The notes under the pieces are model-generated. The model ran no database searches and was not told where the DNA came from. It worked only from the letters and a program-made list of their open reading frames with translations. The position numbers were made by a program, and so were the translations under genes. DNA of 64,000 nucleotides from Eledone cirrhosa (taxonomy: Eukaryota): positions 260,462,001 through 260,526,000 of the forward strand of contig OZ024741.1 of NCBI GenBank assembly GCA_964016885.1. The letters are read 5' to 3'. Below are positions 22,557 through 54,400 of the stretch, one piece after another (the first letter of the stretch is position 1; every line of letters begins with the position of its first letter).

Positions 22557-22733
22557 ACTAATCTCTTTTTCTCCTTTTCCGTTTTAATATATATTTATTT
22601 CAAATATTTCACCGTATAGATAACATATATATTTATACATGCATAAAAGACACATCGAGAGACGGTGAAAATGTGGTGCCAAAAACATTTCTCATCCAAA
22701 TCTCAACAATATCAGTATATACACTAGATTTGC

Positions 22734-22768: not shown

Positions 22769-22784
22769 TTCTATATATATAAAA

Positions 22785-30690: not shown

Positions 30691-31505
30691 TATATAAACG
30701 TTTCTATTTCCATCGTTTTATCGTAAACGTTTATATATTTCCATCGTTATATCATAACGTTTATATTTCCGTCACTAATCTCTTTTTCTCCTTTTCCGTT
30801 TTAATATATATTTATTTCAAATATTTCACCGTATAGATAACATATATATTTATACATGCATAAAAGACACACCGAGAGACGGTGAAAACGTGGTGCCAAA
30901 AACATTTCTCATCCAAATCTCAACAATATCAGTATATACACTAGATTTGCTAGCAGAAAACCGCCCACCGGGTGGTTTTCTGCTATTCTATATATATAAA
31001 ACTGAGGATGTCTGTCTGTGTGTGAGTTTGAATCCCTAAAACTCGAGAACCACCCAACCGACTGTTTTCAAACTTTACACATGTAATAATTATGTTTCAG
31101 GGAGTGTTCTGAGCAAAGAATATTTCAAATTTTCAATGCCGTAGGGACCACATTAGGCGATTTAGCGATCTCTCTCTATAATTCTTAGTCTTTCTCTTTT
31201 TAGATAGAATTTTCAATGTCGTAGGGACCACATTAGGCGATTTAGCGATCTCTCTCTATAATTCTTAGTCTTTCTCTTTTTAGATAGATACATACATATG
31301 ACGTCGTGCCCTTATAATATCTGTCTGTATGTCTGGCTGTCTGCATTACGTCACTTCCCTGAGGATGTCTGTGTGTGTGTGTGTCTGTGAGTTTGAATCC
31401 TTAAAATGCGAGAAGTACCCAACCGATTTTTTTCAAACTTTACATGTGTATTACTTATGTTTCAGGGAGTGTTTGTTATGCACATAAAATTCAACCTTTT
31501 GATCT
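30691..31505 (+). mobile_element. 815-bp Helitron-like cassette, copy 3
   Basis: Near-identical copy, private variant GAAAACGTGG. Confidence 0.6.
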
Positions 31506-33520
31506 GGTGTTTTGACTTACGAGTGTTTCGATACGAGTGTTTCGACTTACGAGTGTTCTGACTTACGAGTGTTTTGACTTACGAGTGTTCTGATTTACGG
31601 AAGTTTCGACATACGAGTGTTTCGATTACGAGTGTTTCGACTTATGAGTGTTTCGACTTACGAGTGTTTCGGCTTATGAGTGTTTCGACTTACGAGTGCT
31701 TCGGCTTACGAGTGTTTCGACTTACGAGTATTTCGGCTTACGAGTGTTTCGACGTACGAATGTTTTGGCTTACGAGTGTTTCGGCTTATGAGTGTTTCGG
31801 CTTACGAGTGTTTCGACTTACGAGTGTTTCGGCTTACGAGTGTTTCAGTGTTTCGGCTTACGTGTGTTTCGACTTACGAGTGTTTCGACTTACGACTGTT
31901 TCGGCTTACGAGTGTATCGGCTTACGAGTGTTTCGGCTTACGAGTGTTTTGACTTACGAGTGTTTTGACTTACGATTGTTTGGCTTACGAGTGTTCTGAC
32001 TTACGGGTGTTCTGACTTACGAGTGTTCCGACTTACGAGTGTTTCGGCTTATGAGGGTTTCGACTTACGAGTGCTTCGGCTTACGAGTGTTTCGACTTAC
32101 GAGTGTTTCGACTTACGAGTGTTTTGACTTACGGAATTTCGGCTTACGAGTGTTTCGACTTACGAGTGTTTTGACGTACGGATGTTTCGACTTACGGGTC
32201 TTTCGACTTGCGAGTGTTTCGGCTTGCGAGTGTTTCGGCTTATGAGGGTTTCGACTTACGAGTGCTTCGGCTTACGAGTGTTTCGACTTACGAGTGTTAT
32301 GACTTACGGGTGTTTTGACATACGAGTGTTTCGACTTACGAGTGTTTTGACTTACGGGTGTTTTGACATACGAGTGTTTCGATACGAGTGTTCTGACTTA
32401 CGAGTGTTCTGACTTACGAGTGTTTCGACATACGAGTGTTTTGGCTTACGGGTGTTTCGACTTACGAGTGTTTTGACTTACGAATGTTTTGACTTACGGG
32501 TGTTTCGGCTTACGAGTGTTTCGACTTACGAGTGTTTCGGCTTACGAGTGTTTCGACTTACTAATGTTTTTACTTACGAGTGTTTCGGCGTACGAGAGTT
32601 TTGACTTACGAGTGTTTCGACTTACGAGTGTTTCGACTTACGAGTATTTTGACTTACGAATGTTTTGACTTACGGGTGTTTCGGCTTACGAGTGTTTCGA
32701 CTTACGAGTGTTTCGGCTTACGAGTGATTCGACTTACTAATGTTTTTACTTACGAGTGTTTCGGCGTACGAGAGTTTTGACTTACGAGTGTTTCGACTTA
32801 CGAGTGTTTCGACTTACGAGTATTTTGACTTACGAATGTTTTGACTTACGGGTGTTTCGGCTTACGAGTGTTTCGACTTACGAGTCTTTCGGCTTACGAG
32901 TGTTTTGACTTACGAGTGTTTTGACTTAAGGGTGTTTCGACTTACGAGTATTTTTGGCTTACGAGTGTTTCGACTTACGAGTGTTTTGACTTACGAGTGT
33001 TCTGATTTACGGATGTTTCGACATACGAGTGTTTCGACTTATGAGTGTTTCGACTTACGATTGTTTCGACTTACGAGTGTTTTGACTTACGGTGTTTCAG
33101 CTTACGAGTGTTTCGACTTACGAGTGTTTTGACTTACGGGTGTTTTGACATACGAGTGTTTCGGTGTTTCGGCTTACCTGTGTTTCGACTTACGAGTGTT
33201 TAGACTTACGAGTGTTTCGGCTTATGAGTGTTTCGACTTACGAGTGCTTCGGCTTACGAGTGTTTCGACTTACGAGTATTTCGGCTTACGAGTGTTTCGA
33301 CGTACGAATGTTTTGGCTTACGAGTGTTTCGGCTTATAAGTTTTTCGACTTACGAGTGTTTCGACTTACGAGTGTTTCGGCTTACGAGTGTTTCGACTTA
33401 CGAGTGTTTCGGCTTACGAGTGTTTCAGTGTTTCGGCTTACGTGTGTTTCGACTTACGAGTGTTTCGACTTACGACTGTTTCGGCTTACGAGTGTTTCGG
33501 CTTACGAGTGTTTCGGCTTA

Positions 33521-34335
33521 TATATAAACGTTTCTATTTCCATCGTTTTATCGTAAACGTTTATATATTTCCATCGTTATATCATAACGTTTATATTTCC
33601 GTCACTAATCTCTTTTTCTCCTTTTCCGTTTTAATATATATTTATTTCAAATATTTCACCGTATAGATAACATATATATTTATACATGCATAAAAGACAC
33701 ACCGAGAGACGGTGAAAATGTGGTGCCAAAAACATTTCTCATCCAAATCTCAACAATATCAGTATATACACTAGATTTGCTAGCAGAAAACCGCCCACCG
33801 GGTGGTTTTCTGCTATTCTATATATATAAAACTGAGGATGTCTGTCTGTGTGTGAGTTTGAATCCCTAAAACTCGAGAACCACCCAACCGACTGTTTTCA
33901 AACTTTACACATGTAATAATTATGTTTCAGGGAGTGTTCTGAGCAAAGAATATTTCAAATTTTCAATGCCGTAGGGACCACATTAGGCGATTTAGCGATC
34001 TCTCTCTATAATTCTTAGTCTTTCTCTTTTTAGATAGAATTTTCAATGTCGTAGGGACCACATTAGGCGATTTAGCGATCTCTCTCTATAATTCTTAGTC
34101 TTTCTCTTTTTAGATAGATACATACATATGACGTCGTGCCCTTATAATATCTGTCTGTATGTCTGGCTGTCTGCATTACGTCACTTCCCTGAGGATGTCT
34201 GTGTGTGTGTGTGTCTGTGAGTTTGAATCCTTAAAATGCGAGAAGTACCCAACCGATTTTTTTCAAACTTTACATGTGTATTACTTATGTTTCAGGGAGT
34301 GTTTGTTATGCACATAAAATTCAACCTTTTGATCT
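33521..34335 (+). mobile_element. 815-bp Helitron-like cassette, copy 4
   Basis: Near-identical copy. Confidence 0.6.
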
Positions 34336-36526
34336 GGTGTTTTGACTTACGAGTGTTTCGATACGAGTGTTTCGACTTACGAGTGTTCTGACTTACGAGT
34401 GTTTTGACTTACGAGTGTTCTGATCTACGGAAGTTTCGACATACGAGTGTTTCGATTACGAGTGTTTCGACTTATGAGTGTTTCGACTTACGAGTGTTTC
34501 GGCTTATGAGTGTTTCGACTTACGAGTGCTTCGGCTTACGAGTGTTTCGACTTACGAGTATTTCGGCTTACGAGTGTTTCGACGTACGAATGTTTTGGCT
34601 TACGAGTGTTTCGGCTTATGAGTGTTTCGGCTTACGAGTGTTTCGACTTACGAGTGTTTCGGCTTACGAGTGTTTCAGTGTTTCGGCTTACGTGTGTTTC
34701 GACTTACGAGTGTTTCGACTTACGACTGTTTCGGCTTACGAGTGTATCGGCTTACGAGTGTTTCGGCTTACGAGTGTTTTGACTTACGAGTGTTTTGACT
34801 TACGATTGTTTGGCTTACGAGTGTTCTGACTTACGGGTGTTCTGACTTACGAGTGTTCCGACTTACGAGTGTTTCGGCTTATGAGGGTTTCGACTTACGA
34901 GTGCTTCGGCTTACGAGTGTTTCGACTTACGAGTGTTTCGACTTACGAGTGTTTTGACTTACGGAATTTCGGCTTACGAGTGTTTCGACTTACGAGTGTT
35001 TTGACGTACGGATGTTTCGACTTACGGGTCTTTCGACTTGCGAGTGTTTCGGCTTGCGAGTGTTTCGGCTTATGAGGGTTTCGACTTACGAGTGCTTCGG
35101 CTTACGAGTGTTTCGACTTACGAGTGTTATGACTTACGGGTGTTTTGACATACGAGTGTTTCGACTTACGAGTGTTTTGACTTACGGGTGTTTTGACATA
35201 CGAGTGTTTCGATACGAGTGTTCTGACTTACGAGTGTTCTGACTTACGAGTGTTTCGACATACGAGTGTTTTGGCTTACGGGTGTTTCGACTTACGAGTG
35301 TTTTGACTTACGAATGTTTTGACTTACGGGTGTTTCGGCTTACGAGTGTTTCGACTTACGAGTGTTTCGGCTTACGAGTGTTTCGACTTACTAATGTTTT
35401 TACTTACGAGTGTTTCGGCGTACGAGAGTTTTGACTTACGAGTGTTTCGACTTACGAGTGTTTCGACTTACGAGTATTTTGACTTACGAATGTTTTGACT
35501 TACGGGTGTTTCGGCTTACGAGTGTTTCGACTTACGAGTGTTTCGGCTTACGAGTGATTCGACTTACTAATGTTTTTACTTACGAGTGTTTCGGCGTACG
35601 AGAGTTTTGACTTACGAGTGTTTCGACTTACGAGTGTTTCGACTTACGAGTATTTTGACTTACGAATGTTTTGACTTACGGGTGTTTCGGCTTACGAGTG
35701 TTTCGACTTACGAGTGTTTCGGCTTACGAGTGATTCGACTTACTAATGTTTTTACTTACGAGTGTTTCGGCGTACGAGAGTTTTGACTTACGAGTGTTTC
35801 GACTTACGAGTGTTTCGACTTACGAGTATTTTGACTTACGAATGTTTTGACTTACGGGTGTTTCGGCTTACGAGTGTTTCGACTTACGAGTCTTTCGGCT
35901 TACGAGTGTTTTGACTTACGAGTGTTTTGACTTAAGGGTGTTTCGACTTACGAGTATTTTTGGCTTACGAGTGTTTCGACTTACGAGTGTTTTGACTTAC
36001 GAGTGTTCTGATTTACGGATGTTTCGACATACGAGTGTTTCGACTTATGAGTGTTTCGACTTACGATTGTTTCGACTTACGAGTGTTTTGACTTACGGTG
36101 TTTCAGCTTACGAGTGTTTCGACTTACGAGTGTTTTGACTTACGGGTGTTTTGACATACGAGTGTTTCGGTGTTTCGGCTTACCTGTGTTTCGACTTACG
36201 AGTGTTTAGACTTACGAGTGTTTCGGCTTATGAGTGTTTCGACTTACGAGTGCTTCGGCTTACGAGTGTTTCGACTTACGAGTATTTCGGCTTACGAGTG
36301 TTTCGACGTACGAATGTTTTGGCTTACGAGTGTTTCGGCTTATAAGTTTTTCGACTTACGAGTGTTTCGACTTACGAGTGTTTCGGCTTACGAGTGTTTC
36401 GACTTACGAGTGTTTCGGCTTACGAGTGTTTCAGTGTTTCGGCTTACGTGTGTTTCGACTTACGAGTGTTTCGACTTACGACTGTTTCGGCTTACGAGTG
36501 TTTCGGCTTACGAGTGTTTCGGCTTA

Positions 36527-37341
36527 TATATAAACGTTTCTATTTCCATCGTTTTATCGTAAACGTTTATATATTTCCATCGTTATATCATAACGTTTAT
36601 ATTTCCGTCACTAATCTCTTTTTCTCCTTTTCCGTTTTAATATATATTTATTTCAAATATTTCACCGTATAGATAACATATATATTTATACATGCATAAA
36701 AGACACACCGAGAGACGGTGAAAATGTGGTGCCAAAAACATTTCTCATCCAAATCTCAACAATATCAGTATATACACTAGATTTGCTAGCAGAAAACCGC
36801 CCACCGGGTGGTTTTCTGCTATTCTATATATATAAAACTGAGGATGTCTGTCTGTGTGTGAGTTTGAATCCCTAAAACTCGAGAACCACCCAACCGACTG
36901 TTTTCAAACTTTACACATGTAATAATTATGTTTCAGGGAGTGTTCTGAGCAAAGAATATTTCAAATTTTCAATGCCGTAGGGACCACATTAGGCGATTTA
37001 GCGATCTCTCTCTATAATTCTTAGTCTTTCTCTTTTTAGATAGAATTTTCAATGTCGTAGGGACCACATTAGGCGATTTAGCGATCTCTCTCTATAATTC
37101 TTAGTCTTTCTCTTTTTAGATAGATACATACATATGACGTCGTGCCCTTATAATATCTGTCTGTATGTCTGGCTGTCTGCATTACGTCACTTCCCTGAGG
37201 ATGTCTGTGTGTGTGTGTGTCTGTGAGTTTGAATCCTTAAAATGCGAGAAGTACCCAACCGATTTTTTTCAAACTTTACATGTGTATTACTTATGTTTCA
37301 GGGAGTGTTTGTTATGCACATAAAATTCAACCTTTTGATCT
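36527..37341 (+). mobile_element. 815-bp Helitron-like cassette, copy 5
   Basis: Near-identical copy. Confidence 0.6.
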
Positions 37342-39356
37342 GGTGTTTTGACTTACGAGTGTTTCGATACGAGTGTTTCGACTTACGAGTGTTCTGACTT
37401 ACGAGTGTTTTGACTTACGAGTGTTCTGATTTACGGAAGTTTCGACATACGAGTGTTTCGATTACGAGTGTTTCGACTTATGAGTGTTTCGACTTACGAG
37501 TGTTTCGGCTTATGAGTGTTTCGACTTACGAGTGCTTCGGCTTACGAGTGTTTCGACTTACGAGTATTTCGGCTTACGAGTGTTTCGACGTACGAATGTT
37601 TTGGCTTACGAGTGTTTCGGCTTATGAGTGTTTCGGCTTACGAGTGTTTCGACTTACGAGTGTTTCGGCTTACGAGTGTTTCAGTGTTTCGGCTTACGTG
37701 TGTTTCGACTTACGAGTGTTTCGACTTACGACTGTTTCGGCTTACGAGTGTATCGGCTTACGAGTGTTTCGGCTTACGAGTGTTTTGACTTACGAGTGTT
37801 TTGACTTACGATTGTTTGGCTTACGAGTGTTCTGACTTACGGGTGTTCTGACTTACGAGTGTTCCGACTTACGAGTGTTTCGGCTTATGAGGGTTTCGAC
37901 TTACGAGTGCTTCGGCTTACGAGTGTTTCGACTTACGAGTGTTTCGACTTACGAGTGTTTTGACTTACGGAATTTCGGCTTACGAGTGTTTCGACTTACG
38001 AGTGTTTTGACGTACGGATGTTTCGACTTACGGGTCTTTCGACTTGCGAGTGTTTCGGCTTGCGAGTGTTTCGGCTTATGAGGGTTTCGACTTACGAGTG
38101 CTTCGGCTTACGAGTGTTTCGACTTACGAGTGTTATGACTTACGGGTGTTTTGACATACGAGTGTTTCGACTTACGAGTGTTTTGACTTACGGGTGTTTT
38201 GACATACGAGTGTTTCGATACGAGTGTTCTGACTTACGAGTGTTCTGACTTACGAGTGTTTCGACATACGAGTGTTTTGGCTTACGGGTGTTTCGACTTA
38301 CGAGTGTTTTGACTTACGAATGTTTTGACTTACGGGTGTTTCGGCTTACGAGTGTTTCGACTTACGAGTGTTTCGGCTTACGAGTGTTTCGACTTACTAA
38401 TGTTTTTACTTACGAGTGTTTCGGCGTACGAGAGTTTTGACTTACGAGTGTTTCGACTTACGAGTGTTTCGACTTACGAGTATTTTGACTTACGAATGTT
38501 TTGACTTACGGGTGTTTCGGCTTACGAGTGTTTCGACTTACGAGTGTTTCGGCTTACGAGTGATTCGACTTACTAATGTTTTTACTTACGAGTGTTTCGG
38601 CGTACGAGAGTTTTGACTTACGAGTGTTTCGACTTACGAGTGTTTCGACTTACGAGTATTTTGACTTACGAATGTTTTGACTTACGGGTGTTTCGGCTTA
38701 CGAGTGTTTCGACTTACGAGTCTTTCGGCTTACGAGTGTTTTGACTTACGAGTGTTTTGACTTAAGGGTGTTTCGACTTACGAGTATTTTTGGCTTACGA
38801 GTGTTTCGACTTACGAGTGTTTTGACTTACGAGTGTTCTGATTTACGGATGTTTCGACATACGAGTGTTTCGACTTATGAGTGTTTCGACTTACGATTGT
38901 TTCGACTTACGAGTGTTTTGACTTACGGTGTTTCAGCTTACGAGTGTTTCGACTTACGAGTGTTTTGACTTACGGGTGTTTTGACATACGAGTGTTTCGG
39001 TGTTTCGGCTTACCTGTGTTTCGACTTACGAGTGTTTCGACTTACGAGTGTTTCGGCTTATGAGTGTTTCGACTTACGAGTGCTTCGGCTTACGAGTGTT
39101 TCGACTTACGAGTATTTCGGCTTACGAGTGTTTCGACGTACGAATGTTTTGGCTTACGAGTGTTTCGGCTTATAAGTTTTTCGACTTACGAGTGTTTCGA
39201 CTTACGAGTGTTTCGGCTTACGAGTGTTTCGACTTACGAGTGTTTCGGCTTACGAGTGTTTCAGTGTTTCGGCTTACGTGTGTTTCGACTTACGAGTGTT
39301 TCGACTTACGACTGTTTCGGCTTACGAGTGTTTCGGCTTACGAGTGTTTCGGCTTA

Positions 39357-40171
39357 TATATAAACGTTTCTATTTCCATCGTTTTATCGTAAACGTTTAT
39401 ATATTTCCATCGTTATATCATAACGTTTATATTTCCGTCACTAATCTCTTTTTCTCCTTTTCCGTTTTAATATATATTTATTTCAAATATTTCACCGTAT
39501 AGATAACATATATATTTATACATGCATAAAAGACACACCGAGAGACGGTGAAAATGTGGTGCCAAAAACATTTCTCATCCAAATCTCAACAATATCAGTA
39601 TATACACTAGATTTGCTAGCAGAAAACCGCCCACCGGGTGGTTTTCTGCTATTCTATATATATAAAACTGAGGATGTCTGTCTGTGTGTGAGTTTGAATC
39701 CCTAAAACTCGAGAACCACCCAACCGACTGTTTTCAAACTTTACACATGTAATAATTATGTTTCAGGGAGTGTTCTGAGCAAAGAATATTTCAAATTTTC
39801 AATGCCGTAGGGACCACATTAGGCGATTTAGCGATCTCTCTCTATAATTCTTAGTCTTTCTCTTTTTAGATAGAATTTTCAATGTCGTAGGGACCACATT
39901 AGGCGATTTAGCGATCTCTCTCTATAATTCTTAGTCTTTCTCTTTTTAGATAGATACATACATATGACGTCGTGCCCTTATAATATCTGTCTGTATGTCT
40001 GGCTGTCTGCATTACGTCACTTCCCTGAGGATGTCTGTGTGTGTGTGTGTCTGTGAGTTTGAATCCTTAAAATGCGAGAAGTACCCAACCGATTTTTTTC
40101 AAACTTTACATGTGTATTACTTATGTTTCAGGGAGTGTTTGTTATGCACATAAAATTCAACCTTTTGATCT
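39357..40171 (+). mobile_element. 815-bp Helitron-like cassette, copy 6
   Basis: Near-identical copy. Confidence 0.6.
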
Positions 40172-42186
40172 GGTGTTTTGACTTACGAGTGTTTCGATAC
40201 GAGTGTTTCGACTTACGAGTGTTCTGACTTACGAGTGTTTTGACTTACGAGTGTTCTGATTTACGGAAGTTTCGACATACGAGTGTTTCGATTACGAGTG
40301 TTTCGACTTATGAGTGTTTCGACTTACGAGTGTTTCGGCTTATGAGTGTTTCGACTTACGAGTGCTTCGGCTTACGAGTGTTTCGACTTACGAGTATTTC
40401 GGCTTACGAGTGTTTCGACGTACGAATGTTTTGGCTTACGAGTGTTTCGGCTTATGAGTGTTTCGGCTTACGAGTGTTTCGACTTACGAGTGTTTCGGCT
40501 TACGAGTGTTTCAGTGTTTCGGCTTACGTGTGTTTCGACTTACGAGTGTTTCGACTTACGACTGTTTCGGCTTACGAGTGTATCGGCTTACGAGTGTTTC
40601 GGCTTACGAGTGTTTTGACTTACGAGTGTTTTGACTTACGATTGTTTGGCTTACGAGTGTTCTGACTTACGGGTGTTCTGACTTACGAGTGTTCCGACTT
40701 ACGAGTGTTTCGGCTTATGAGGGTTTCGACTTACGAGTGCTTCGGCTTACGAGTGTTTCGACTTACGAGTGTTTCGACTTACGAGTGTTTTGACTTACGG
40801 AATTTCGGCTTACGAGTGTTTCGACTTACGAGTGTTTTGACGTACGGATGTTTCGACTTACGGGTCTTTCGACTTGCGAGTGTTTCGGCTTGCGAGTGTT
40901 TCGGCTTATGAGGGTTTCGACTTACGAGTGCTTCGGCTTACGAGTGTTTCGACTTACGAGTGTTATGACTTACGGGTGTTTTGACATACGAGTGTTTCGA
41001 CTTACGAGTGTTTTGACTTACGGGTGTTTTGACATACGAGTGTTTCGATACGAGTGTTCTGACTTACGAGTGTTCTGACTTACGAGTGTTTCGACATACG
41101 AGTGTTTTGGCTTACGGGTGTTTCGACTTACGAGTGTTTTGACTTACGAATGTTTTGACTTACGGGTGTTTCGGCTTACGAGTGTTTCGACTTACGAGTG
41201 TTTCGGCTTACGAGTGTTTCGACTTACTAATGTTTTTACTTACGAGTGTTTCGGCGTACGAGAGTTTTGACTTACGAGTGTTTCGACTTACGAGTGTTTC
41301 GACTTACGAGTATTTTGACTTACGAATGTTTTGACTTACGGGTGTTTCGGCTTACGAGTGTTTCGACTTACGAGTGTTTCGGCTTACGAGTGATTCGACT
41401 TACTAATGTTTTTACTTACGAGTGTTTCGGCGTACGAGAGTTTTGACTTACGAGTGTTTCGACTTACGAGTGTTTCGACTTACGAGTATTTTGACTTACG
41501 AATGTTTTGACTTACGGGTGTTTCGGCTTACGAGTGTTTCGACTTACGAGTCTTTCGGCTTACGAGTGTTTTGACTTACGAGTGTTTTGACTTAAGGGTG
41601 TTTCGACTTACGAGTATTTTTGGCTTACGAGTGTTTCGACTTACGAGTGTTTTGACTTACGAGTGTTCTGATTTACGGATGTTTCGACATACGAGTGTTT
41701 CGACTTATGAGTGTTTCGACTTACGATTGTTTCGACTTACGAGTGTTTTGACTTACGGTGTTTCAGCTTACGAGTGTTTCGACTTACGAGTGTTTTGACT
41801 TACGGGTGTTTTGACATACGAGTGTTTCGGTGTTTCGGCTTACCTGTGTTTCGACTTACGAGTGTTTCGACTTACGAGTGTTTCGGCTTATGAGTGTTTC
41901 GACTTACGAGTGCTTCGGCTTACGAGTGTTTCGACTTACGAGTATTTCGGCTTACGAGTGTTTCGACGTACGAATGTTTTGGCTTACGAGTGTTTCGGCT
42001 TATAAGTTTTTCGACTTACGAGTGTTTCGACTTACGAGTGTTTCGGCTTACGAGTGTTTCGACTTACGAGTGTTTCGGCTTACGAGTGTTTCAGTGTTTC
42101 GGCTTACGTGTGTTTCGACTTACGAGTGTTTCGACTTACGACTGTTTCGGCTTACGAGTGTTTCGGCTTACGAGTGTTTCGGCTTA

Positions 42187-43001
42187 TATATAAACGTTTC
42201 TATTTCCATCGTTTTATCGTAAACGTTTATATATTTCCATCGTTATATCATAACGTTTATATTTCCGTCACTAATCTCTTTTTCTCCTTTTCCGTTTTAA
42301 TATATATTTATTTCAAATATTTCACCGTATAGATAACATATATATTTATACATGCATAAAAGACACACCGAGAGACGGTGAAAATGTGGTGCCAAAAACA
42401 TTTCTCATCCAAATCTCAACAATATCAGTATATACACTAGATTTGCTAGCAGAAAACCGCCCACCGGGTGGTTTTCTGCTATTCTATATATATAAAACTG
42501 AGGATGTCTGTCTGTGTGTGAGTTTGAATCCCTAAAACTCGAGAACCACCCAACCGACTGTTTTCAAACTTTACACATGTAATAATTATGTTTCAGGGAG
42601 TGTTCTGAGCAAAGAATATTTCAAATTTTCAATGCCGTAGGGACCACATTAGGCGATTTAGCGATCTCTCTCTATAATTCTTAGTCTTTCTCTTTTTAGA
42701 TAGAATTTTCAATGTCGTAGGGACCACATTAGGCGATTTAGCGATCTCTCTCTATAATTCTTAGTCTTTCTCTTTTTAGATAGATACATACATATGACGT
42801 CGTGCCCTTATAATATCTGTCTGTATGTCTGGCTGTCTGCATTACGTCACTTCCCTGAGGATGTCTGTGTGTGTGTGTGTCTGTGAGTTTGAATCCTTAA
42901 AATGCGAGAAGTACCCAACCGATTTTTTTCAAACTTTACATGTGTATTACTTATGTTTCAGGGAGTGTTTGTTATGCACATAAAATTCAACCTTTTGATC
43001 T
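42187..43001 (+). mobile_element. 815-bp Helitron-like cassette, copy 7
   Basis: Near-identical copy. Confidence 0.6.
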
Positions 43002-45016
43002 GGTGTTTTGACTTACGAGTGTTTCGATACGAGTGTTTCGACTTACGAGTGTTCTGACTTACGAGTGTTTTGACTTACGAGTGTTCTGATTTACGGAAGT
43101 TTCGACATACGAGTGTTTCGATTACGAGTGTTTCGACTTATGAGTGTTTCGACTTACGAGTGTTTCGGCTTATGAGTGTTTCGACTTACGAGTGCTTCGG
43201 CTTACGAGTGTTTCGACTTACGAGTATTTCGGCTTACGAGTGTTTCGACGTACGAATGTTTTGGCTTACGAGTGTTTCGGCTTATGAGTGTTTCGGCTTA
43301 CGAGTGTTTCGACTTACGAGTGTTTCGGCTTACGAGTGTTTCAGTGTTTCGGCTTACGTGTGTTTCGACTTACGAGTGTTTCGACTTACGACTGTTTCGG
43401 CTTACGAGTGTATCGGCTTACGAGTGTTTCGGCTTACGAGTGTTTTGACTTACGAGTGTTTTGACTTACGATTGTTTGGCTTACGAGTGTTCTGACTTAC
43501 GGGTGTTCTGACTTACGAGTGTTCCGACTTACGAGTGTTTCGGCTTATGAGGGTTTCGACTTACGAGTGCTTCGGCTTACGAGTGTTTCGACTTACGAGT
43601 GTTTCGACTTACGAGTGTTTTGACTTACGGAATTTCGGCTTACGAGTGTTTCGACTTACGAGTGTTTTGACGTACGGATGTTTCGACTTACGGGTCTTTC
43701 GACTTGCGAGTGTTTCGGCTTGCGAGTGTTTCGGCTTATGAGGGTTTCGACTTACGAGTGCTTCGGCTTACGAGTGTTTCGACTTACGAGTGTTATGACT
43801 TACGGGTGTTTTGACATACGAGTGTTTCGACTTACGAGTGTTTTGACTTACGGGTGTTTTGACATACGAGTGTTTCGATACGAGTGTTCTGACTTACGAG
43901 TGTTCTGACTTACGAGTGTTTCGACATACGAGTGTTTTGGCTTACGGGTGTTTCGACTTACGAGTGTTTTGACTTACGAATGTTTTGACTTACGGGTGTT
44001 TCGGCTTACGAGTGTTTCGACTTACGAGTGTTTCGGCTTACGAGTGTTTCGACTTACTAATGTTTTTACTTACGAGTGTTTCGGCGTACGAGAGTTTTGA
44101 CTTACGAGTGTTTCGACTTACGAGTGTTTCGACTTACGAGTATTTTGACTTACGAATGTTTTGACTTACGGGTGTTTCGGCTTACGAGTGTTTCGACTTA
44201 CGAGTGTTTCGGCTTACGAGTGATTCGACTTACTAATGTTTTTACTTACGAGTGTTTCGGCGTACGAGAGTTTTGACTTACGAGTGTTTCGACTTACGAG
44301 TGTTTCGACTTACGAGTATTTTGACTTACGAATGTTTTGGCTTACGGGTGTTTCGGCTTACGAGTGTTTCGACTTACGAGTCTTTCGGCTTACGAGTGTT
44401 TTGACATACGAGTGTTTTGACTTAAGGGTGTTTCGACTTACGAGTATTTTTGGCTTACGAGTGTTTCGACTTACGAGTGTTTTGACTTACGAGTGTTCTG
44501 ATTTACGGATGTTTCGACATACGAGTGTTTCGACTTATGAGTGTTTCGACTTACGATTGTTTCGACTTACGAGTGTTTTGACTTACGGTGTTTCAGCTTA
44601 CGAGTGTTTCGACTTACGAGTGTTTTGACTTACGGGTGTTTTGACATACGAGTGTTTCGGTGTTTCGGCTTACCTGTGTTTCGACTTACGAGTGTTTCGA
44701 CTTACGAGTGTTTCGGCTTATGAGTGTTTCGACTTACGAGTGCTTCGGCTTACGAGTGTTTCGACTTACGAGTATTTCGGCTTACGAGTGTTTCGACGTA
44801 CGAATGTTTTGGCTTACGAGTGTTTCGGCTTATAAGTTTTTCGACTTACGAGTGTTTCGACTTACGAGTGTTTCGGCTTACGAGTGTTTCGACTTACGAG
44901 TGTTTCGGCTTACGAGTGTTTCAGTGTTTCGGCTTACGTGTGTTTCGACTTACGAGTGTTTCGACTTACGACTGTTTCGGCTTACGAGTGTTTCGGCTTA
45001 CGAGTGTTTCGGCTTA

Positions 45017-45831
45017 TATATAAACGTTTCTATTTCCATCGTTTTATCGTAAACGTTTATATATTTCCATCGTTATATCATAACGTTTATATTTCCGTCA
45101 CTAATCTCTTTTTCTCCTTTTCCGTTTTAATATATATTTATTTCAAATATTTCACCGTATAGATAACATATATATTTATACATGCATAAAAGACACACCG
45201 AGAGACGGTGAAAATGTGGTGCCAAAAACATTTCTCATCCAAATCTCAACAATATCAGTATATACACTAGATTTGCTAGCAGAAAACCGCCCACCGGGTG
45301 GTTTTCTGCTATTCTATATATATAAAACTGAGGATGTCTGTCTGTGTGTGAGTTTGAATCCCTAAAACTCGAGAACCACCCAACCGACTGTTTTCAAACT
45401 TTACACATGTAATAATTATGTTTCAGGGAGTGTTCTGAGCAAAGAATATTTCAAATTTTCAATGCCGTAGGGACCACATTAGGCGATTTAGCGATCTCTC
45501 TCTATAATTCTTAGTCTTTCTCTTTTTAGATAGAATTTTCAATGTCGTAGGGACCACATTAGGCGATTTAGCGATCTCTCTCTATAATTCTTAGTCTTTC
45601 TCTTTTTAGATAGATACATACATATGACGTCGTGCCCTTATAATATCTGTCTGTATGTCTGGCTGTCTGCATTACGTCACTTCCCTGAGGATGTCTGTGT
45701 GTGTGTGTGTCTGTGAGTTTGAATCCTTAAAATGCGAGAAGTACCCAACCGATTTTTTTCAAACTTTACATGTGTATTACTTATGTTTCAGGGAGTGTTT
45801 GTTATGCACATAAAATTCAACCTTTTGATCT
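45017..45831 (+). mobile_element. 815-bp Helitron-like cassette, copy 8
   Basis: Near-identical copy. Confidence 0.6.
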
Positions 45832-47846
45832 GGTGTTTTGACTTACGAGTGTTTCGATACGAGTGTTTCGACTTACGAGTGTTCTGACTTACGAGTGTTT
45901 TGACTTACGAGTGTTCTGATTTACGGAAGTTTCGACATACGAGTGTTTCGATTACGAGTGTTTCGACTTATGAGTGTTTCGACTTACGAGTGTTTCGGCT
46001 TATGAGTGTTTCGACTTACGAGTGCTTCGGCTTACGAGTGTTTCGACTTACGAGTATTTCGGCTTACGAGTGTTTCGACGTACGAATGTTTTGGCTTACG
46101 AGTGTTTCGGCTTATGAGTGTTTCGGCTTACGAGTGTTTCGACTTACGAGTGTTTCGGCTTACGAGTGTTTCAGTGTTTCGGCTTACGTGTGTTTCGACT
46201 TACGAGTGTTTCGACTTACGACTGTTTCGGCTTACGAGTGTATCGGCTTACGAGTGTTTCGGCTTACGAGTGTTTTGACTTACGAGTGTTTTGACTTACG
46301 ATTGTTTGGCTTACGAGTGTTCTGACTTACGGGTGTTCTGACTTACGAGTGTTCCGACTTACGAGTGTTTCGGCTTATGAGGGTTTCGACTTACGAGTGC
46401 TTCGGCTTACGAGTGTTTCGACTTACGAGTGTTTCGACTTACGAGTGTTTTGACTTACGGAATTTCGGCTTACGAGTGTTTCGACTTACGAGTGTTTTGA
46501 CGTACGGATGTTTCGACTTACGGGTCTTTCGACTTGCGAGTGTTTCGGCTTGCGAGTGTTTCGGCTTATGAGGGTTTCGACTTACGAGTGCTTCGGCTTA
46601 CGAGTGTTTCGACTTACGAGTGTTATGACTTACGGGTGTTTTGACATACGAGTGTTTCGACTTACGAGTGTTTTGACTTACGGGTGTTTTGACATACGAG
46701 TGTTTCGATACGAGTGTTCTGACTTACGAGTGTTCTGACTTACGAGTGTTTCGACATACGAGTGTTTTGGCTTACGGGTGTTTCGACTTACGAGTGTTTT
46801 GACTTACGAATGTTTTGACTTACGGGTGTTTCGGCTTACGAGTGTTTCGACTTACGAGTGTTTCGGCTTACGAGTGTTTCGACTTACTAATGTTTTTACT
46901 TACGAGTGTTTCGGCGTACGAGAGTTTTGACTTACGAGTGTTTCGACTTACGAGTGTTTCGACTTACGAGTATTTTGACTTACGAATGTTTTGACTTACG
47001 GGTGTTTCGGCTTACGAGTGTTTCGACTTACGAGTGTTTCGGCTTACGAGTGATTCGACTTACTAATGTTTTTACTTACGAGTGTTTCGGCGTACGAGAG
47101 TTTTGACTTACGAGTGTTTCGACTTACAAGTGTTTCGACTTACGAGTATTTTGACTTACGAATGTTTTGACTTACGGGTGTTTCGGCTTACGAGTGTTTC
47201 GACTTACGAGTCTTTCGGCTTACGAGTGTTTTGACTTACGAGTGTTTTGACTTAAGGGTGTTTCGACTTACGAGTATTTTTGGCTTACGAGTGTTTCGAC
47301 TTACGAGTGTTTTGACTTACGAGTGTTCTGATTTACGGATGTTTCGACATACGAGTGTTTCGACTTATGAGTGTTTCGACTTACGATTGTTTCGACTTAC
47401 GAGTGTTTTGACTTACGGTGTTTCAGCTTACGAGTGTTTCGACTTACGAGTGTTTTGACTTACGGGTGTTTTGACATACGAGTGTTTCGGTGTTTCGGCT
47501 TACCTGTGTTTCGACTTACGAGTGTTTCGACTTACGAGTGTTTCGGCTTATGAGTGTTTCGACTTACGAGTGCTTCGGCTTACGAGTGTTTCGACTTACG
47601 AGTATTTCGGCTTACGAGTGTTTCGACGTACGAATGTTTTGGCTTACGAGTGTTTCGGCTTATAAGTTTTTCGACTTACGAGTGTTTCGACTTACGAGTG
47701 TTTCGGCTTACGAGTGTTTCGACTTACGAGTGTTTCGGCTTACGAGTGTTTCAGTGTTTCGGCTTACGTGTGTTTCGACTTACGAGTGTTTCGACTTACG
47801 ACTGTTTCGGCTTACGAGTGTTTCGGCTTACGAGTGTTTCGGCTTA

Positions 47847-48661
47847 TATATAAACGTTTCTATTTCCATCGTTTTATCGTAAACGTTTATATATTTCCAT
47901 CGTTATATCATAACGTTTATATTTCCGTCACTAATCTCTTTTTCTCCTTTTCCGTTTTAATATATATTTATTTCAAATATTTCACCGTATAGATAACATA
48001 TATATTTATACATGCATAAAAGACACACCGAGAGACGGTGAAAATGTGGTGCCAAAAACATTTCTCATCCAAATCTCAACAATATCAGTATATACACTAG
48101 ATTTGCTAGCAGAAAACCGCCCACCGGGTGGTTTTCTGCTATTCTATATATATAAAACTGAGGATGTCTGTCTGTGTGTGAGTTTGAATCCCTAAAACTC
48201 GAGAACCACCCAACCGACTGTTTTCAAACTTTACACATGTAATAATTATGTTTCAGGGAGTGTTCTGAGCAAAGAATATTTCAAATTTTCAATGCCGTAG
48301 GGACCACATTAGGCGATTTAGCGATCTCTCTCTATAATTCTTAGTCTTTCTCTTTTTAGATAGAATTTTCAATGTCGTAGGGACCACATTAGGCGATTTA
48401 GCGATCTCTCTCTATAATTCTTAGTCTTTCTCTTTTTAGATAGATACATACATATGACGTCGTGCCCTTATAATATCTGTCTGTATGTCTGGCTGTCTGC
48501 ATTACGTCACTTCCCTGAGGATGTCTGTGTGTGTGTGTGTCTGTGAGTTTGAATCCTTAAAATGCGAGAAGTACCCAACCGATTTTTTTCAAACTTTACA
48601 TGTGTATTACTTATGTTTCAGGGAGTGTTTGTTATGCACATAAAATTCAACCTTTTGATCT
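47847..48661 (+). mobile_element. 815-bp Helitron-like cassette, copy 9
   Basis: Near-identical copy. Confidence 0.6.
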
Positions 48662-50676
48662 GGTGTTTTGACTTACGAGTGTTTCGATACGAGTGTTTCG
48701 ACTTACGAGTGTTCTGACTTACGAGTGTTTTGACTTACGAGTGTTCTGATTTACGGAAGTTTCGACATACGAGTGTTTCGATTACGAGTGTTTCGACTTA
48801 TGAGTGTTTCGACTTACGAGTGTTTCGGCTTATGAGTGTTTCGACTTACGAGTGCTTCGGCTTACGAGTGTTTCGACTTACGAGTATTTCGGCTTACGAG
48901 TGTTTCGACGTACGAATGTTTTGGCTTACGAGTGTTTCGGCTTATGAGTGTTTCGGCTTACGAGTGTTTCGACTTACGAGTGTTTCGGCTTACGAGTGTT
49001 TCAGTGTTTCGGCTTACGTGTGTTTCGACTTACGAGTGTTTCGACTTACGACTGTTTCGGCTTACGAGTGTATCGGCTTACGAGTGTTTCGGCTTACGAG
49101 TGTTTTGACTTACGAGTGTTTTGACTTACGATTGTTTGGCTTACGAGTGTTCTGACTTACGGGTGTTCTGACTTACGAGTGTTCCGACTTACGAGTGTTT
49201 CGGCTTATGAGGGTTTCGACTTACGAGTGCTTCGGCTTACGAGTGTTTCGACTTACGAGTGTTTCGACTTACAAGTGTTTTGACTTACGGAATTTCGGCT
49301 TACGAGTGTTTCGACTTACGAGTGTTTTGACGTACGGATGTTTCGACTTACGGGTCTTTCGACTTGCGAGTGTTTCGGCTTGCGAGTGTTTCGGCTTATG
49401 AGGGTTTCGACTTACGAGTGCTTCGGCTTACGAGTGTTTCGACTTACGAGTGTTATGACTTACGGGTGTTTTGACATACGAGTGTTTCGACTTACGAGTG
49501 TTTTGACTTACGGGTGTTTTGACATACGAGTGTTTCGATACGAGTGTTCTGACTTACGAGTGTTCTGACTTACGAGTGTTTCGACATACGAGTGTTTTGG
49601 CTTACGGGTGTTTCGACTTACGAGTGTTTTGACTTACGAATGTTTTGACTTACGGGTGTTTCGGCTTACGAGTGTTTCGACTTACGAGTGTTTCGGCTTA
49701 CGAGTGTTTCGACTTACTAATGTTTTTACTTACGAGTGTTTCGGCGTACGAGAGTTTTGACTTACGAGTGTTTCGACTTACGAGTGTTTCGACTTACGAG
49801 TATTTTGACTTACGAATGTTTTGACTTACGGGTGTTTCGGCTTACGAGTGTTTCGACTTACGAGTGTTTCGGCTTACGAGTGATTCGACTTACTAATGTT
49901 TTTACTTACGAGTGTTTCGGCGTACGAGAGTTTTGACTTACGAGTGTTTCGACTTACGAGTGTTTCGACTTACGAGTATTTTGACTTACGAATGTTTTGA
50001 CTTACGGGTGTTTCGGCTTACGAGTGTTTCGACTTACGAGTCTTTCGGCTTACGAGTGTTTTGACTTACGAGTGTTTTGACTTAAGGGTGTTTCGACTTA
50101 CGAGTATTTTTGGCTTACGAGTGTTTCGACTTACGAGTGTTTTGACTTACGAGTGTTCTGATTTACGGATGTTTCGACATACGAGTGTTTCGACTTATGA
50201 GTGTTTCGACTTACGATTGTTTCGACTTACGAGTGTTTTGACTTACGGTGTTTCAGCTTACGAGTGTTTCGACTTACGAGTGTTTTGACTTACGGGTGTT
50301 TTGACATACGAGTGTTTCGGTGTTTCGGCTTACCTGTGTTTCGACTTACGAGTGTTTCGACTTACGAGTGTTTCGGCTTATGAGTGTTTCGACTTACGAG
50401 TGCTTCGGCTTACGAGTGTTTCGACTTACGAGTATTTCGGCTTACGAGTGTTTCGACGTACGAATGTTTTGGCTTACGAGTGTTTCGGCTTATAAGTTTT
50501 TCGACTTACGAGTGTTTCGACTTACGAGTGTTTCGGCTTACGAGTGTTTCGACTTACGAGTGTTTCGGCTTACGAGTGTTTCAGTGTTTCGGCTTACGTG
50601 TGTTTCGACTTACGAGTGTTTCGACTTACGACTGTTTCGGCTTACGAGTGTTTCGGCTTACGAGTGTTTCGGCTTA

Positions 50677-51491
50677 TATATAAACGTTTCTATTTCCATC
50701 GTTTTATCGTAAACGTTTATATATTTCCATCGTTATATCATAACGTTTATATTTCCGTCACTAATCTCTTTTTCTCCTTTTCCGTTTTAATATATATTTA
50801 TTTCAAATATTTCACCGTATAGATAACATATATATTTATACATGCATAAAAGACACACCGAGAGACGGTGAAAATGTGGTGCCAAAAACATTTCTCATCC
50901 AAATCTCAACAATATCAGTATATACACTAGATTTGCTAGCAGAAAACCGCCCACCGGGTGGTTTTCTGCTATTCTATATATATAAAACTGAGGATGTCTG
51001 TCTGTGTGTGAGTTTGAATCCCTAAAACTCGAGAACCACCCAACCGACTGTTTTCAAACTTTACACATGTAATAATTATGTTTCAGGGAGTGTTCTGAGC
51101 AAAGAATATTTCAAATTTTCAATGCCGTAGGGACCACATTAGGCGATTTAGCGATCTCTCTCTATAATTCTTAGTCTTTCTCTTTTTAGATAGAATTTTC
51201 AATGTCGTAGGGACCACATTAGGCGATTTAGCGATCTCTCTCTATAATTCTTAGTCTTTCTCTTTTTAGATAGATACATACATATGACGTCGTGCCCTTA
51301 TAATATCTGTCTGTATGTCTGGCTGTCTGCATTACGTCACTTCCCTGAGGATGTCTGTGTGTGTGTGTGTCTGTGAGTTTGAATCCTTAAAATGCGAGAA
51401 GTACCCAACCGATTTTTTTCAAACTTTACATGTGTATTACTTATGTTTCAGGGAGTGTTTGTTATGCACATAAAATTCAACCTTTTGATCT
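50677..51491 (+). mobile_element. 815-bp Helitron-like cassette, copy 10
   Basis: Near-identical copy. Confidence 0.6.
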
Positions 51492-54400
51492 GGTGTTTTG
51501 ACTTACGAGTGTTTCGATACGAGTGTTTCGACTTACGAGTGTTCTGACTTACGAGTGTTTTGACTTACGAGTGTTCTGATTTACGGAAGTTTCGACATAC
51601 GAGTGTTTCGATTACGAGTGTTTCGACTTATGAGTGTTTCGACTTACGAGTGTTTCGGCTTATGAGTGTTTCGACTTACGAGTGCTTCGGCTTACGAGTG
51701 TTTCGACTTACGAGTATTTCGGCTTACGAGTGTTTCGACGTACGAATGTTTTGGCTTACGAGTGTTTCGGCTTATGAGTGTTTCGGCTTACGAGTGTTTC
51801 GACTTACGAGTGTTTCGGCTTACGAGTGTTTCAGTGTTTCGGCTTACGTGTGTTTCGACTTACGAGTGTTTCGACTTACGACTGTTTCGGCTTACGAGTG
51901 TATCGGCTTACGAGTGTTTCGGCTTACGAGTGTTTTGACTTACGAGTGTTTTGACTTACGATTGTTTGGCTTACGAGTGTTCTGACTTACGGGTGTTCTG
52001 ACTTACGAGTGTTCCGACTTACGAGTGTTTCGGCTTATGAGGGTTTCGACTTACGAGTGCTTCGGCTTACGAGTGTTTCGACTTACGAGTGTTTCGACTT
52101 ACGAGTGTTTTGACTTACGGAATTTCGGCTTACGAGTGTTTCGACTTACGAGTGTTTTGACGTACGGATGTTTCGACTTACGGGTCTTTCGACTTGCGAG
52201 TGTTTCGGCTTGCGAGTGTTTCGGCTTATGAGGGTTTCGACTTACGAGTGCTTCGGCTTACGAGTGTTTCGACTTACGAGTGTTATGACTTACGGGTGTT
52301 TTGACATACGAGTGTTTCGACTTACGAGTGTTTTGACTTACGGGTGTTTTGACATACGAGTGTTTCGATACGAGTGTTCTGACTTACGAGTGTTCTGACT
52401 TACGAGTGTTTCGACATACGAGTGTTTTGGCTTACGGGTGTTTCGACTTACGAGTGTTTTGACTTACGAATGTTTTGACTTACGGGTGTTTCGGCTTACG
52501 AGTGTTTCGACTTACGAGTGTTTCGGCTTACGAGTGTTTCGACTTACTAATGTTTTTACTTACGAGTGTTTCGGCGTACGAGAGTTTTGACTTACGAGTG
52601 TTTCGACTTACGAGTGTTTCGACTTACGAGTATTTTGACTTACGAATGTTTTGACTTACGGGTGTTTCGGCTTACGAGTGTTTCGACTTACGAGTGTTTC
52701 GGCTTACGAGTGATTCGACTTACTAATGTTTTTACTTACGAGTGTTTCGGCGTACGAGAGTTTTGACTTACGAGTGTTTCGACTTACGAGTGTTTCGACT
52801 TACGAGTATTTTGACTTACGAATGTTTTGGCTTACGGGTGTTTCGGCTTACGAGTGTTTCGACTTACGAGTCTTTCGGCTTACGAGTGTTTTGACATACG
52901 AGTGTTTTGACTTAAGGGTGTTTCGACTTACGAGTATTTTTGGCTTACGAGTGTTTCGACTTACGAGTGTTTTGACTTACGAGTGTTCTGATTTACGGAT
53001 GTTTCGACATACGAGTGTTTCGACTTATGAGTGTTTCGACTTACGATTGTTTCGACTTACGAGTGTTTTGACTTACGGTGTTTCAGCTTACGAGTGTTTC
53101 GACTTACGAGTGTTTTGACTTACGGGTGTTTTGACATACGAGTGTTTCGATACGAGTGTTCTGACTTACGAGTGTTCTGACTTACGAGTGTTTTGACTTA
53201 CGAGTGTTCCGACTTACGAGTGTTCCGACTTACGAGTGTTCCGACTTACGAGTGTTTCAGCTTACGAGTGTTTCCGGCTTACGAGTGTTTCGACTTACGA
53301 GTGTTTTGACTTACGGTGTTTCGGGTTACGAGTGATTCGACTTACGAGTGTTTTGACTTACGGGTGTTTTGACTTACGGGTGTTGTGAATTACGAGTGTT
53401 CCGATTTACGAGTGTTTTGACATACGGTGTTTCGGCTTACGAGTGATTCGACTTACGAATGTTTTGACTTAAGGGTGTTTCGGCTTGCGAGTGTTTCGAC
53501 TTACGAGTGTTTCGGCTTATGAGTGTTTCGACTTACTAATGTTTTTACTTACGAGTGTTCTGACTTACGTGTTTTCCGAATTACGAGTGTTCCGACTTAC
53601 GAGTGTTTCGGCTTACGAGTGTTTCCGGCTTACGAGTGTTTCGACTTACGAGTGTTTCGACTTACGAGTGTTTTGACTTACGGTGTTTCGACTTACGAGT
53701 GATTCGACTTACGAGTGTTTTGACTTACGGGTGTTTTGACTTACGGGTGTTGTGAATTACCAGTGTTCCGATTTACGAGTGTTTTGACTTACGGTGTTTC
53801 GGCTTACGAGTGATTCGACTTACGAATGTTTTGACTTACGGGTGTTTCGGCTTGCTAGGGTTTCGACTTACGAGTGTTTCGGCTTATGAGTGTTTTGACT
53901 TACTACTGTTTTTACTTACGATTGTTTCGGCGTACGAGTGTTTTGACTTACGAGTGTTTCGACTTACGAGTGTTTCGACTTACGAGTGTTTCGGCTTACG
54001 TGAGTTTCGACTTAAGAGTGTTCTGATTTACGAGTGTTCTGACTTGCGGGTGTTCTGATTTACGAGTGTTCCGACTTACGAGTGTTTCGTCTTATGAGTG
54101 TTTCGAATTACGAGTGTTTCGGCTTACGAGTGTTTCGACTTACGAGTGTTTTGACTTACGAATGTTTTGACTTACGGGTGTTTCGGCTTACGAGTGTTTC
54201 GACTTACGAGTCTTTCGGCTCACGAGTGTTTCGGCGTACGAGTGTTTCGACTTACGAGTGTTTCGACTTACGGGTGTTTTGACTTACGGGTGTTTCGGCT
54301 TACGAGTGTTTTGACTTACGGGTGTTTTGACTTAAGGGTGTTTCGACTTACGAGTATTTTTGGCTTACGAGTGTTTCGACTTACGAGTGTTTTGAATTAC

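Follow-up and report, generated by a model that had tools for sequence, protein, structure and literature searches.

Organization of the array

The window, that is, the whole stretch of 64,000 nucleotides analysed here, contains ten cassettes of 815 bp each that are 99.75-100% identical. The motif CCGCCC-ACC-GGGTGG-TTTTCTG-CTAT|TCTATATATAT, which the original prediction had placed in every cassette, was found in all ten. Eight of them form a homogeneous higher-order array (Table 1), and across 264 kb, comprising the window and its flanks, no other block exceeds 2.5 copies. Spacings between TC starts within the array are 2830 bp in six cases and 3006 bp in one, the extra 176 bp being a satellite sub-repeat duplicated in place without change. 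Among the six full units of 2830 bp there are 0-3 differing positions, and identity extends from 30513 to 53149 with two point differences in the left part, at 30558 and 30889. The unit has the predicted anatomy: a 519-bp body, ~2.0 kb of satellite, ~296 bp of AT-rich DNA and the hairpin with CTAT. The accompanying statement that the period equals the element length is true by construction. An Rfam search of 30500-33900 gave no matches.

The eight-copy number rests on the genome assembly; one neighbouring pair of units is identical and the others lie 1-3 bases apart, as might be seen if the assembly had inflated the count. Such inflation is very improbable, however, given six variable positions in a nested pattern, the 176-bp length variant and unique flanks that are colinear with other copies.

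Table 1. Features of the array, its cassettes and their surroundings (window positions).
Feature	Position	Strand	Remarks
Cassette TC start (junction)	22770, 25516, 30987, 33817, 36823, 39653, 42483, 45313, 48143, 50973	+	
Homogeneous higher-order array	30513..53149	+	8 cassettes; 7 full units (six of 2830 bp, one of 3006 bp), partial eighth
Additional exact 176-bp satellite copy	35382..35557	+	Source of the 3006-bp length in unit 2
Family A 3' piece, ~296 bp, non-autonomous Helitron	30691..30986	+	Also from 33521, 36527, 39357, 42187, 45017, 47847, 50677, 22474, 25220
Family A terminal palindrome, 16-bp stem and 3-nt loop	30951..30986	+	CTAT end here; CTAG and 17-bp stem in dispersed copies
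Family B first 519 bp	30987..31505	+	Cut at GATCT, then satellite; also from 33817, 36823, 39653, 42483, 45313, 48143, 50973, 22770, 25516
81-bp internal duplication inside family B piece	31128-31288	+	
16-bp satellite, ~117 monomers	31506..33520	+	Commonest CTTACGAGTGTTTCGA and ...CGG; nested 176-bp sub-repeat x3
New joint defining the 2830-bp unit	33151..33163	+	13-bp overlap of two satellite monomers; unit positions 2165-2177
Same new joint, further copies	36157, 38987, 41817, 44647, 47477, 50307	+	
Family A remnant in ancestral order	21760..22769	+	Upstream piece, 37 satellite monomers, 3' piece, terminus; recurs 2746 bp later
Family A upstream piece by itself	669, 3512, 55771, 59872, 63503		
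Control: tandem duplication without cassette	11445..16351	+	Period 2404, 99.5% identical

The junction joins two Helitron families

Left of the junction lies the 3' end of family A, which is young, and right of it the 5' part of family B, which is older. This refutes the reading of the 2830-bp unit as one Helitron: its ends come from two families, and no dispersed copy of the unit exists (0 of the 106 B-to-satellite joins lie outside the satellite domain described below). The element boundary had been placed correctly at 30986/30987. Both sides proved to be true Helitron termini, with 1853 dispersed 5' ends and 613 dispersed 3' ends, and sequencing reads of two other samples (reduced-representation) break at 30987 with mixed flanks. 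Instead of the expected short hairpin a few bases before the terminus, a 16-bp stem that takes in the terminal CTA was found (30951-30985, -16 kcal/mol), and an equally good fold arose in 0 of 200 shuffles. The symmetry of the palindrome would also allow a canonical end to be read on the minus strand at the junction, but the orientation seen in dispersed copies is that of the plus strand.

Dispersed family A 3' ends carry CTAG in 99 of the 100 among the matches listed (613 in total). CTAT, not CTRR, ends the family A piece in all ten window cassettes, where it is linked with other derived alleles, and in 64 of 104 cassettes from the 6.9-Mb satellite domain; CTAT is a derived mutation of CTAG. 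A CTAT copy on C22 was rejected as a cassette, being a dispersed composite that underwent the change independently.

Family A shows the TC start, hairpin and CTAG end of a canonical Helitron (HLE1), although the position of CTAG inside a 17-bp stem is atypical for that class. Most of its 162 exact TC-start matches are internal to longer composites; outer starts follow a host A in 35 of 42 cases. All 30 sampled dispersed copies contain 1-6 satellite monomers, bearing out the prediction of a Helitron with an internal satellite monomer, here of 16 bp. All 30 sampled family A ends adjoin a Helitron-like 5' start outside any satellite. Dispersed A copies ordinarily sit in A|B-type joints, so the array junction was inherited, and it predates the truncation of family B. 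In the tree, the six array cassettes group with an A-CTAG|B copy at C2:240.96 Mb that is untruncated (support 93/89, rough). Movement of A|B composites as one clade was not supported (11 changes versus 10.7 shuffled, in a poorly resolved tree).

The 5' TC of family B directly follows a host A in 16 of 30 sampled copies, as in HLE1, an A-type end in 13 (two loci counted twice) and a B-type end in one; the search pattern for these starts excluded a preceding T. Family B has its own 3' end, different from that of family A and located 414-1480 bp from TC in 22 of the 30, with a host T next to the CTRR end in 20 of these 22, again as in HLE1. Exact family B ends plus T number 2052 genome-wide. Abutment on another Helitron, so regular for family A, is rare for family B (35/2052). 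A subterminal 4-bp CCCG/CGGG stem was seen by eye; the single folded copy, at locus L310, gave -0.9 kcal/mol (z 0.85). At L310 the A|TC start and CTAG|T end lie 3.77 kb apart, and the disrupted PIF1 helicase frames between them (Pfam E 6.9e-10 and 8.5e-23) tie family B to RepHel coding sequence. RepHel copies with long open frames are present in the genome, as predicted, and one frame of 1718 codons has Rep and helicase motifs. Among the ten long-frame copies examined (150 scored, 3704 candidates), none was an autonomous RepHel element with family A or B termini as its own ends. Assignment of either family to Helentron/HINE (DINE-1 type), defined in the available text of PMC11417382 by short terminal inverted repeats and a T|T target, is not supported, given the TC/CTAG ends and A|T flanks.

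A satellite domain of several megabases

The satellite domain spans C2:254.7-261.7 Mb, ~6.9 Mb on a 416-Mb contig, and its left edge begins with the family A 5' part. It is not one continuous array: a 39-bp satellite makes up two of nine control segments, and two stretches have the opposite orientation. The 106 B-to-satellite joins all fall within C2:256.6-261.7 Mb. In each of 104 whole cassettes the A end and B start occur together, none being free; a further join belongs to a fragment that another satellite interrupts. Cassettes occur in dense clusters of 11-24. Cassettes are unevenly spaced, the 72 neighbour spacings taking 58 values from 1919 to 30514 bp, with 2830 bp in six. Larger units of two cassettes (6219 bp) and five cassettes (18114 bp, 99.9%) are present, and duplications without a cassette (2.2-10 kb, 99.1-99.9% identity) are common.

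In most stretches, the two commonest array monomers are the two types of the family A element. The same monomer is found in dispersed elements and in long arrays, the mark of a Helitron-derived satellite. The left edge of the domain and the embedded family A flanks, which are in order, argue for growth from element to satellite; against it, monomers are 6-9% off the commonest monomer and embedded element pieces only 1-2%. It is likely that the satellite grew from the short repeat inside family A.

The near-constant abutment of the A end on the 5' TC of other, older Helitrons suggests that insertion was targeted there. We give even chances to a fuller account, in which A would be a piggyback Helitron, with CTAG in a 17-bp palindrome, that inserts nearly exclusively where RepHel nicks resident Helitrons, at their exact 5' boundary, the targets belonging to about ten families. 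One such insertion would have seeded the multi-megabase 16-bp satellite domain, where the A 5' piece persists at the edge, together with more than a thousand upstream-flank copies and about a hundred 3'-junction copies. No report of a Helitron family obligately abutting the 5' ends of other families was found in a search of the main texts of mainly open-access papers.

Growth of the array

Homology-driven recombination among satellite monomers probably multiplied the 2830-bp unit step by step, carrying the A|B joint along as a passenger. Boundaries at element termini, expected of a rolling-circle Helitron concatemer, were not found: the new joint and the right array end are both in satellite. 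The new joint lies 653-666 bp upstream of the junction, the joint and both parents are resolved to the base, and at 53137-53149 the downstream parent continues unjoined. Derived variants are common to units 5 and 8, and to units 1 and 2, so one burst from one monomeric circle cannot explain the array. Across 100 cassettes, linkage is strongest between the two segments on either side of the junction (Spearman 0.62), as fits a passenger joint. Recombination is further favoured by the distinct B 3' end, the A ends already abutting 5' starts, the untruncated A-CTAG|B copy, the one-domain joins, the lack of free ends, the irregular spacing, the multi-cassette units and the cassette-free duplications. 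Four-gamete conflicts across the junction (44/630 pairs) count against it, matching those within B (26/435) and exceeding those within A (1/210), as does the dense clustering of cassettes; no clear signal marked the junction as a recombination hotspot.

The two families, the inherited CTAG|TC adjacency, the derived CTAT, the 13-bp satellite overlap and the confinement to one domain are shown by the data, and we infer the order of steps. The first step would have been insertion of A against the 5' edge of a B copy already in place, followed by expansion of the 2-3 monomers inside A. A non-homologous duplication may then have rejoined B to upstream satellite, creating the cassette, with B cut at ~440 bp and later reaching 519 bp through the 81-bp duplication. 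Duplications of 0.2-18 kb would have spread cassette and satellite through the domain, CTAG changing to CTAT meanwhile. The 2830-bp unit would have arisen when a monomer 666 bp upstream of one junction crossed over in phase with a monomer 2177 bp downstream of it, and may then have grown to eight copies in several steps by unequal exchange, break-induced replication or reinserted recombination-made circles.

Rolling-circle expansion by RepHel in trans, as originally predicted, is disfavoured against stepwise satellite recombination. In its read-through form, RepHel would nick the intact B 5' end and displace a strand through the satellite to or past the A end, the product reinserting by homology. 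The family B 5' end, with its TC start, is indeed intact in all cassettes, and Helraiser requires its 5' end but not its 3' end (PMC4778049). The left crossover is bracketed only to -428..+1019 of the 30987 junction, an interval that takes in TC, and the sole block above 2.5 copies in the ~950 kb scanned carries the cassette (n=1); all three observations count against recombination with a passenger joint. The many RepHel copies, the 1718-codon frame and the PIF1 remnants enclosed by B termini at L310 also speak for the RepHel model, and a similar idea has been put forward for butterfly transposon arrays, as an untested proposal in the accessible part of bioRxiv 10.64898/2026.07.30.741882. We nonetheless consider it unlikely: the new joint sits in satellite, no cassette has free ends, no copy lies beyond the domain, the non-canonical CTAT clade is the majority, the shared derived variants imply multiple steps, and none of the ten long-frame RepHel copies examined has A or B termini as its own ends.

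The single high-copy block also fits amplification promoted by the cassette itself without RepHel, the 16-bp palindrome stalling forks or causing breaks, or the 815-bp unique stretch holding exchanges in register, so that cassette blocks grow or stay homogeneous longer. The hairpin is highly stable and cassettes are clustered, but four other cassette-bearing segments (300 kb) contain only ~2-copy duplications, as in cassette-free DNA, and breakpoints lie away from the palindrome. Such self-promotion can be compatible with stepwise satellite recombination, yet we doubt that it operated.

Comparison with known systems

Satellites from Helitron/Helentron internal repeats include Drosophila DINE-TR1 and oyster Cg170/CgiSat01 in Cg_HINE (available portions of PMC12628747, PMC7492417 and PMC8268682; Dias 2015 via these). 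There, as here, a short array sits in a dispersed non-autonomous element, long arrays lie elsewhere, and intermediates carry element parts on one side. Unlike in DINE-TR1 and Cg170, the termini here are canonical TC...CTAG, the monomer is 16 bp, both element flanks persist inside the array, and the left domain edge starts with the element 5' part. The longest oyster array in those portions is ~40 kb, whereas the blocks here spread over ~6.9 Mb.

McGurk and Barbash 2018 described transposon dimers expanded into arrays and proposed unequal exchange (PMC5932611, in part; Helitrons have 0 occurrences). Their dimers likewise arose as junctions from insertion preference, multiplied afterwards; here, however, two different families are joined, the passenger lies in satellite, and no target duplication was seen when the flanks were read by eye. 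The precise CTAG|TC junction chemistry resembles that of the head-to-tail Helraiser circles (PMC4778049, PMC5876387) and the rolling-circle tandem arrays of Xiong 2016 (as summarised in PMC12628747). In both, the ends are those of a single element, and the arrays have many 5' ends and one 3' end, whereas here the ends come from two families, both occur in every unit and the new joint is elsewhere. Abutting ends of separate insertions also have parallels in the accessible texts: in bat HelibatN a 5' end abuts another copy's 3' end, one of three routes among 39/395 copies (PMC4778049), and maize Helitrons prefer nearby Helitrons (PMC12477314, citing Yang and Bennetzen 2009). Unlike in HelibatN, abutment is near-obligate for family A and rare for family B. 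Composite Helitron transposition is also described (PMC4224331, in part).

Finding a CTAG|TC junction within a homogeneous array does not in itself point to rolling-circle copying, since the junction here was inherited and probably carried as a passenger. With unusual completeness, the locus documents how a satellite is linked to a Helitron internal repeat, through 2-3 monomers, 9-kb, 97-kb and megabase blocks, and its ~100 cassettes are lineage markers for turnover of the satellite domain. If family A targets Helitron 5' ends, it would offer a natural, testable case of RepHel target choice and a route for Helitrons to acquire new ends.

Cassettes and array in the window

The window, at C2:260,462,001-260,526,000 in the 3.0-Gb genome, is filled end to end by a 16-bp satellite. 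It contains ten 815-bp cassettes (mutual identity 99.75-100%), in all ten of which the junction described in the original prediction was seen: a hairpin with a 16-bp stem, terminal CTA included, ends Helitron family A in CTAT and is joined to the TC start of a second family, B. Eight cassettes form the array. Its six full 2830-bp units differ by 0-3 bases, and six positions vary across the eight units. Units 5 and 8 share two derived changes and units 1 and 2 share one, which means that growth or conversion proceeded in several steps.

Coordinates of features in the window and genome (L numbers, individual loci; C numbers, contigs)
Feature	Position	Remarks
Eight-cassette array	window 30513-53149	extent of identity; spacings 2830, 3006, then five more of 2830 bp
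Cassette-free higher-order duplications	window 1-18500 and 53150-64000	periods 2843, 2404, 2264, 3631 and 4102-4134 bp
C2 domain, left start	~C2:254,735,080	family A 5' part leads into monomers
C2 domain, right end	~261,668,600	within satellite
39-bp satellite blocks interrupting C2 domain	L271-L275, L299-L302, L192	75- and 114-bp periods; one cuts a cassette mid-B
Minus-strand 16-bp satellite	258.9-259.0, 259.6 and 260.0 Mb (L161-L170, L286-L290, L303-L306)	large inversion within domain; 24 CTAG cassettes; five-cassette duplication of 18,114 bp at 99.9%
Mini-array, 9 kb	C2:240.957-240.967 Mb, minus (L151-L152)	uncut A-CTAG/B end; inverted, 13.8 Mb from main domain
Second 16-bp satellite array, ~97 kb	C1:279.297-279.393 Mb (L148-L149)	contains A upstream pieces; flanked by two further satellites of short period
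Palindromes between outward-pointing Helitron 5' starts	L038, L046, L048, L076, L078, L153, L155	left start: inverted 5' piece captured within a composite
Related palindromic end with extra T	L051:2581, L100:2321	ordinary host sequence follows
1718-codon frame	L251:7157 to L252:2310	Rep and helicase motifs; hairpin-CTAG end 190 bp downstream
Near-identical Rep domains	L231-L250 (C19, C20, C27, C16)	on small contigs, spaced ~100-150 kb apart; usually with the same 362-codon frame

Two Helitron families at the junction

The predicted Helitron identity was confirmed by dispersed TC starts, dispersed CTAG ends and PIF1 remnants. A pattern search for family B TC starts, restricted to those with no T directly before them, gave 1853 genome matches. 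At the first 30 loci examined, all on C1 and not a random sample, the start was preceded by host A (16), a cassette-type palindrome (13) or another end (1). Family B reached a distinct 3' end within 414-1480 bp in 22 of 30 sampled loci, followed by T in 20 of these, and a 3.77-kb copy encloses broken PIF1 helicase frames, which ties the B termini to a RepHel element. Only the first ~440 bp of B are present in the cassette; the window subtype has 519 bp because of an 81-bp duplication. The hairpin half of family A gave 613 genome matches, with CTAG in 99 among the 100 matches listed. Upstream of the hairpin half, dispersed A copies have a TC start distinct from that of B and 1-6 satellite monomers (30/30 sampled). 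In raw reads from two further samples of this organism, the sequence breaks off at 30987, where the upstream flanks are mixed; base 30986 is G in 842/912 and 833/897 reads.

Family A abuts Helitron 5' starts

Judged by eye, a Helitron-like 5' start directly follows family A ends in 30/30 sampled cases, and in a second, partly overlapping sample of 30 it follows all 29 A ends found; the partner starts are of roughly ten kinds. Genome-wide, only 35 of 613 A ends (the 613 including up to ~40 array copies) are followed by T and then A, G or T, CTAG followed by non-T falling outside this count. B ends followed by TCTA or TCTC number only 35 of 2052, in a test not symmetrical with that of A ends. 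A-type palindromic ends directly precede 5' starts in 59/59 sampled cases (L061-L090, L201-L230 and window 30951-30987; samples overlap).

In 18 dispersed A/B-type pairs, A deviates from column majorities by 1.0% versus 4.9% for the partner (Wilcoxon p = 0.0002, no correlation), a comparison biased by exact-match selection and B subfamilies and including two partners from other families; free B copies (n=13) deviate by 4.3%. The simplest reading of these sequences is that A inserted later at the A/TC edge of resident elements, where its 3' end may have attacked the RepHel-nicked 5' end of a resident Helitron. A landing-pad origin of the adjacency and co-mobilisation of A and its partner are both possible. 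The extra-T palindromic ends are possibly a free-inserting sister subfamily.

The junction is older than the array

The mini-array at C2:240.96 Mb ends in A-CTAG/B, with B extending beyond the cassette cut point. Its B part clusters with six array representatives (support 93/89, rough) in a 31-row tree from which the window's own subtype was omitted because of its duplication. This uncut copy and its grouping show that A and B were joined before B was cut; the array inherited its junction. CTAT/TC occurs 63 times, 62 of them within the 6.9-Mb C2 satellite domain surrounding the window, and CTAT is linked to other derived alleles (103 cassettes).

The original prediction took the 2830-bp unit for a single satellite-carrying element. 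No such element was found: the B cut point has 107 genome matches, the one uncut copy and 106 satellite joins, all 106 within C2:256.6-261.7 Mb. In none of 104 whole cassettes examined from the domain (64 CTAT, 38 CTAG, 2 CTAA) does the A end or the B start stand free; one more of the joins, besides these 104, is a fragment interrupted by 39-bp satellite. Spacings between neighbouring cassettes take 58 values among 72, and larger repeat units of two and five cassettes were seen.

Origin of the 2830-bp unit

Four single cassettes (22770 and 25516, and 81487 and 108018 in flank coordinates) have upstream flanks that match unit positions 2165-2830; the sequence up to 2177 runs on, in the last unit, into sequence colinear with that on the downstream side of cassette 81487. 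This parental overlap of 13 satellite bases (2165-2177) places the new joint within satellite, 653-666 bp upstream of the junction. With that joint in satellite and no free ends in 104 cassettes, a Helitron concatemer is not supported. Sequences on the two sides of the junction are linked as tightly as other parts are, although conflicts within A are fewer.

Cassette-free duplications are common both in the 264 kb of the window and its surroundings (2.2-7.2 kb, 99.1-99.8% identity) and in nine control segments (390 kb; 2.6-10 kb). None of them exceeds 2.5 copies, nor does any block in four other cassette-bearing segments (300 kb). In about 950 kb scanned, the eight-copy block thus has no equal, which is the main remaining point for a special mechanism. 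One such mechanism is RepHel read-through from the intact B start, amplifying the cassette. As described in the relevant parts of PMC4778049 and PMC5876387, Helraiser requires its 5' end, can dispense with its 3' end and forms precise head-to-tail circles, which makes read-through chemically possible; the singular block is cassette-bearing, and the left crossover, bracketed only to -428..+1019, has TC inside its interval. The position of the new joint argues against read-through, as do the 0/10 examined long-frame RepHel copies with A or B termini as their own ends, and we regard it as improbable. The underlying PF14214 search gave 3704 candidates, with frames up to 1718 codons among 150 scored. 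From its sequence, the longest is a candidate for an intact, autonomous element of a further Helitron family, and the Rep domains recurring on small contigs may belong to giant tandem units that contain a Helitron.

The satellite domain and its relation to family A

Sampled domain segments contained the 16-bp satellite in 7/9 and the 39-bp satellite in 2/9. The upstream piece of family A has 1541 genome matches, many of which lie as inserts at regular intervals within the C2 domain and the 97-kb C1 array, and the satellite probably derives from the element. Monomers diverge by 6-9% from the commonest monomer versus 1-2% for embedded element pieces, so capture of pre-existing, older monomers by family A is possible. 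The mini-array may be the original right end of the domain, relocated by inversion.

The satellite link resembles Helitron/Helentron-borne satellites of flies and oysters, as far as these are covered in the pertinent sections of PMC12628747, PMC7492417 and PMC8268682. The array fits dimer-then-expansion, in the portion of PMC5932611 concerned, better than rolling-circle arrays (Xiong 2016, as summarised in PMC12628747). Abutting Helitrons appear as occasional events in passages of PMC4778049, PMC12477314 and PMC4224331; no case of near-obligate abutting of Helitron 5' ends was found in the literature searched. The main interest lies in this behaviour of family A and in the completeness of the satellite record.
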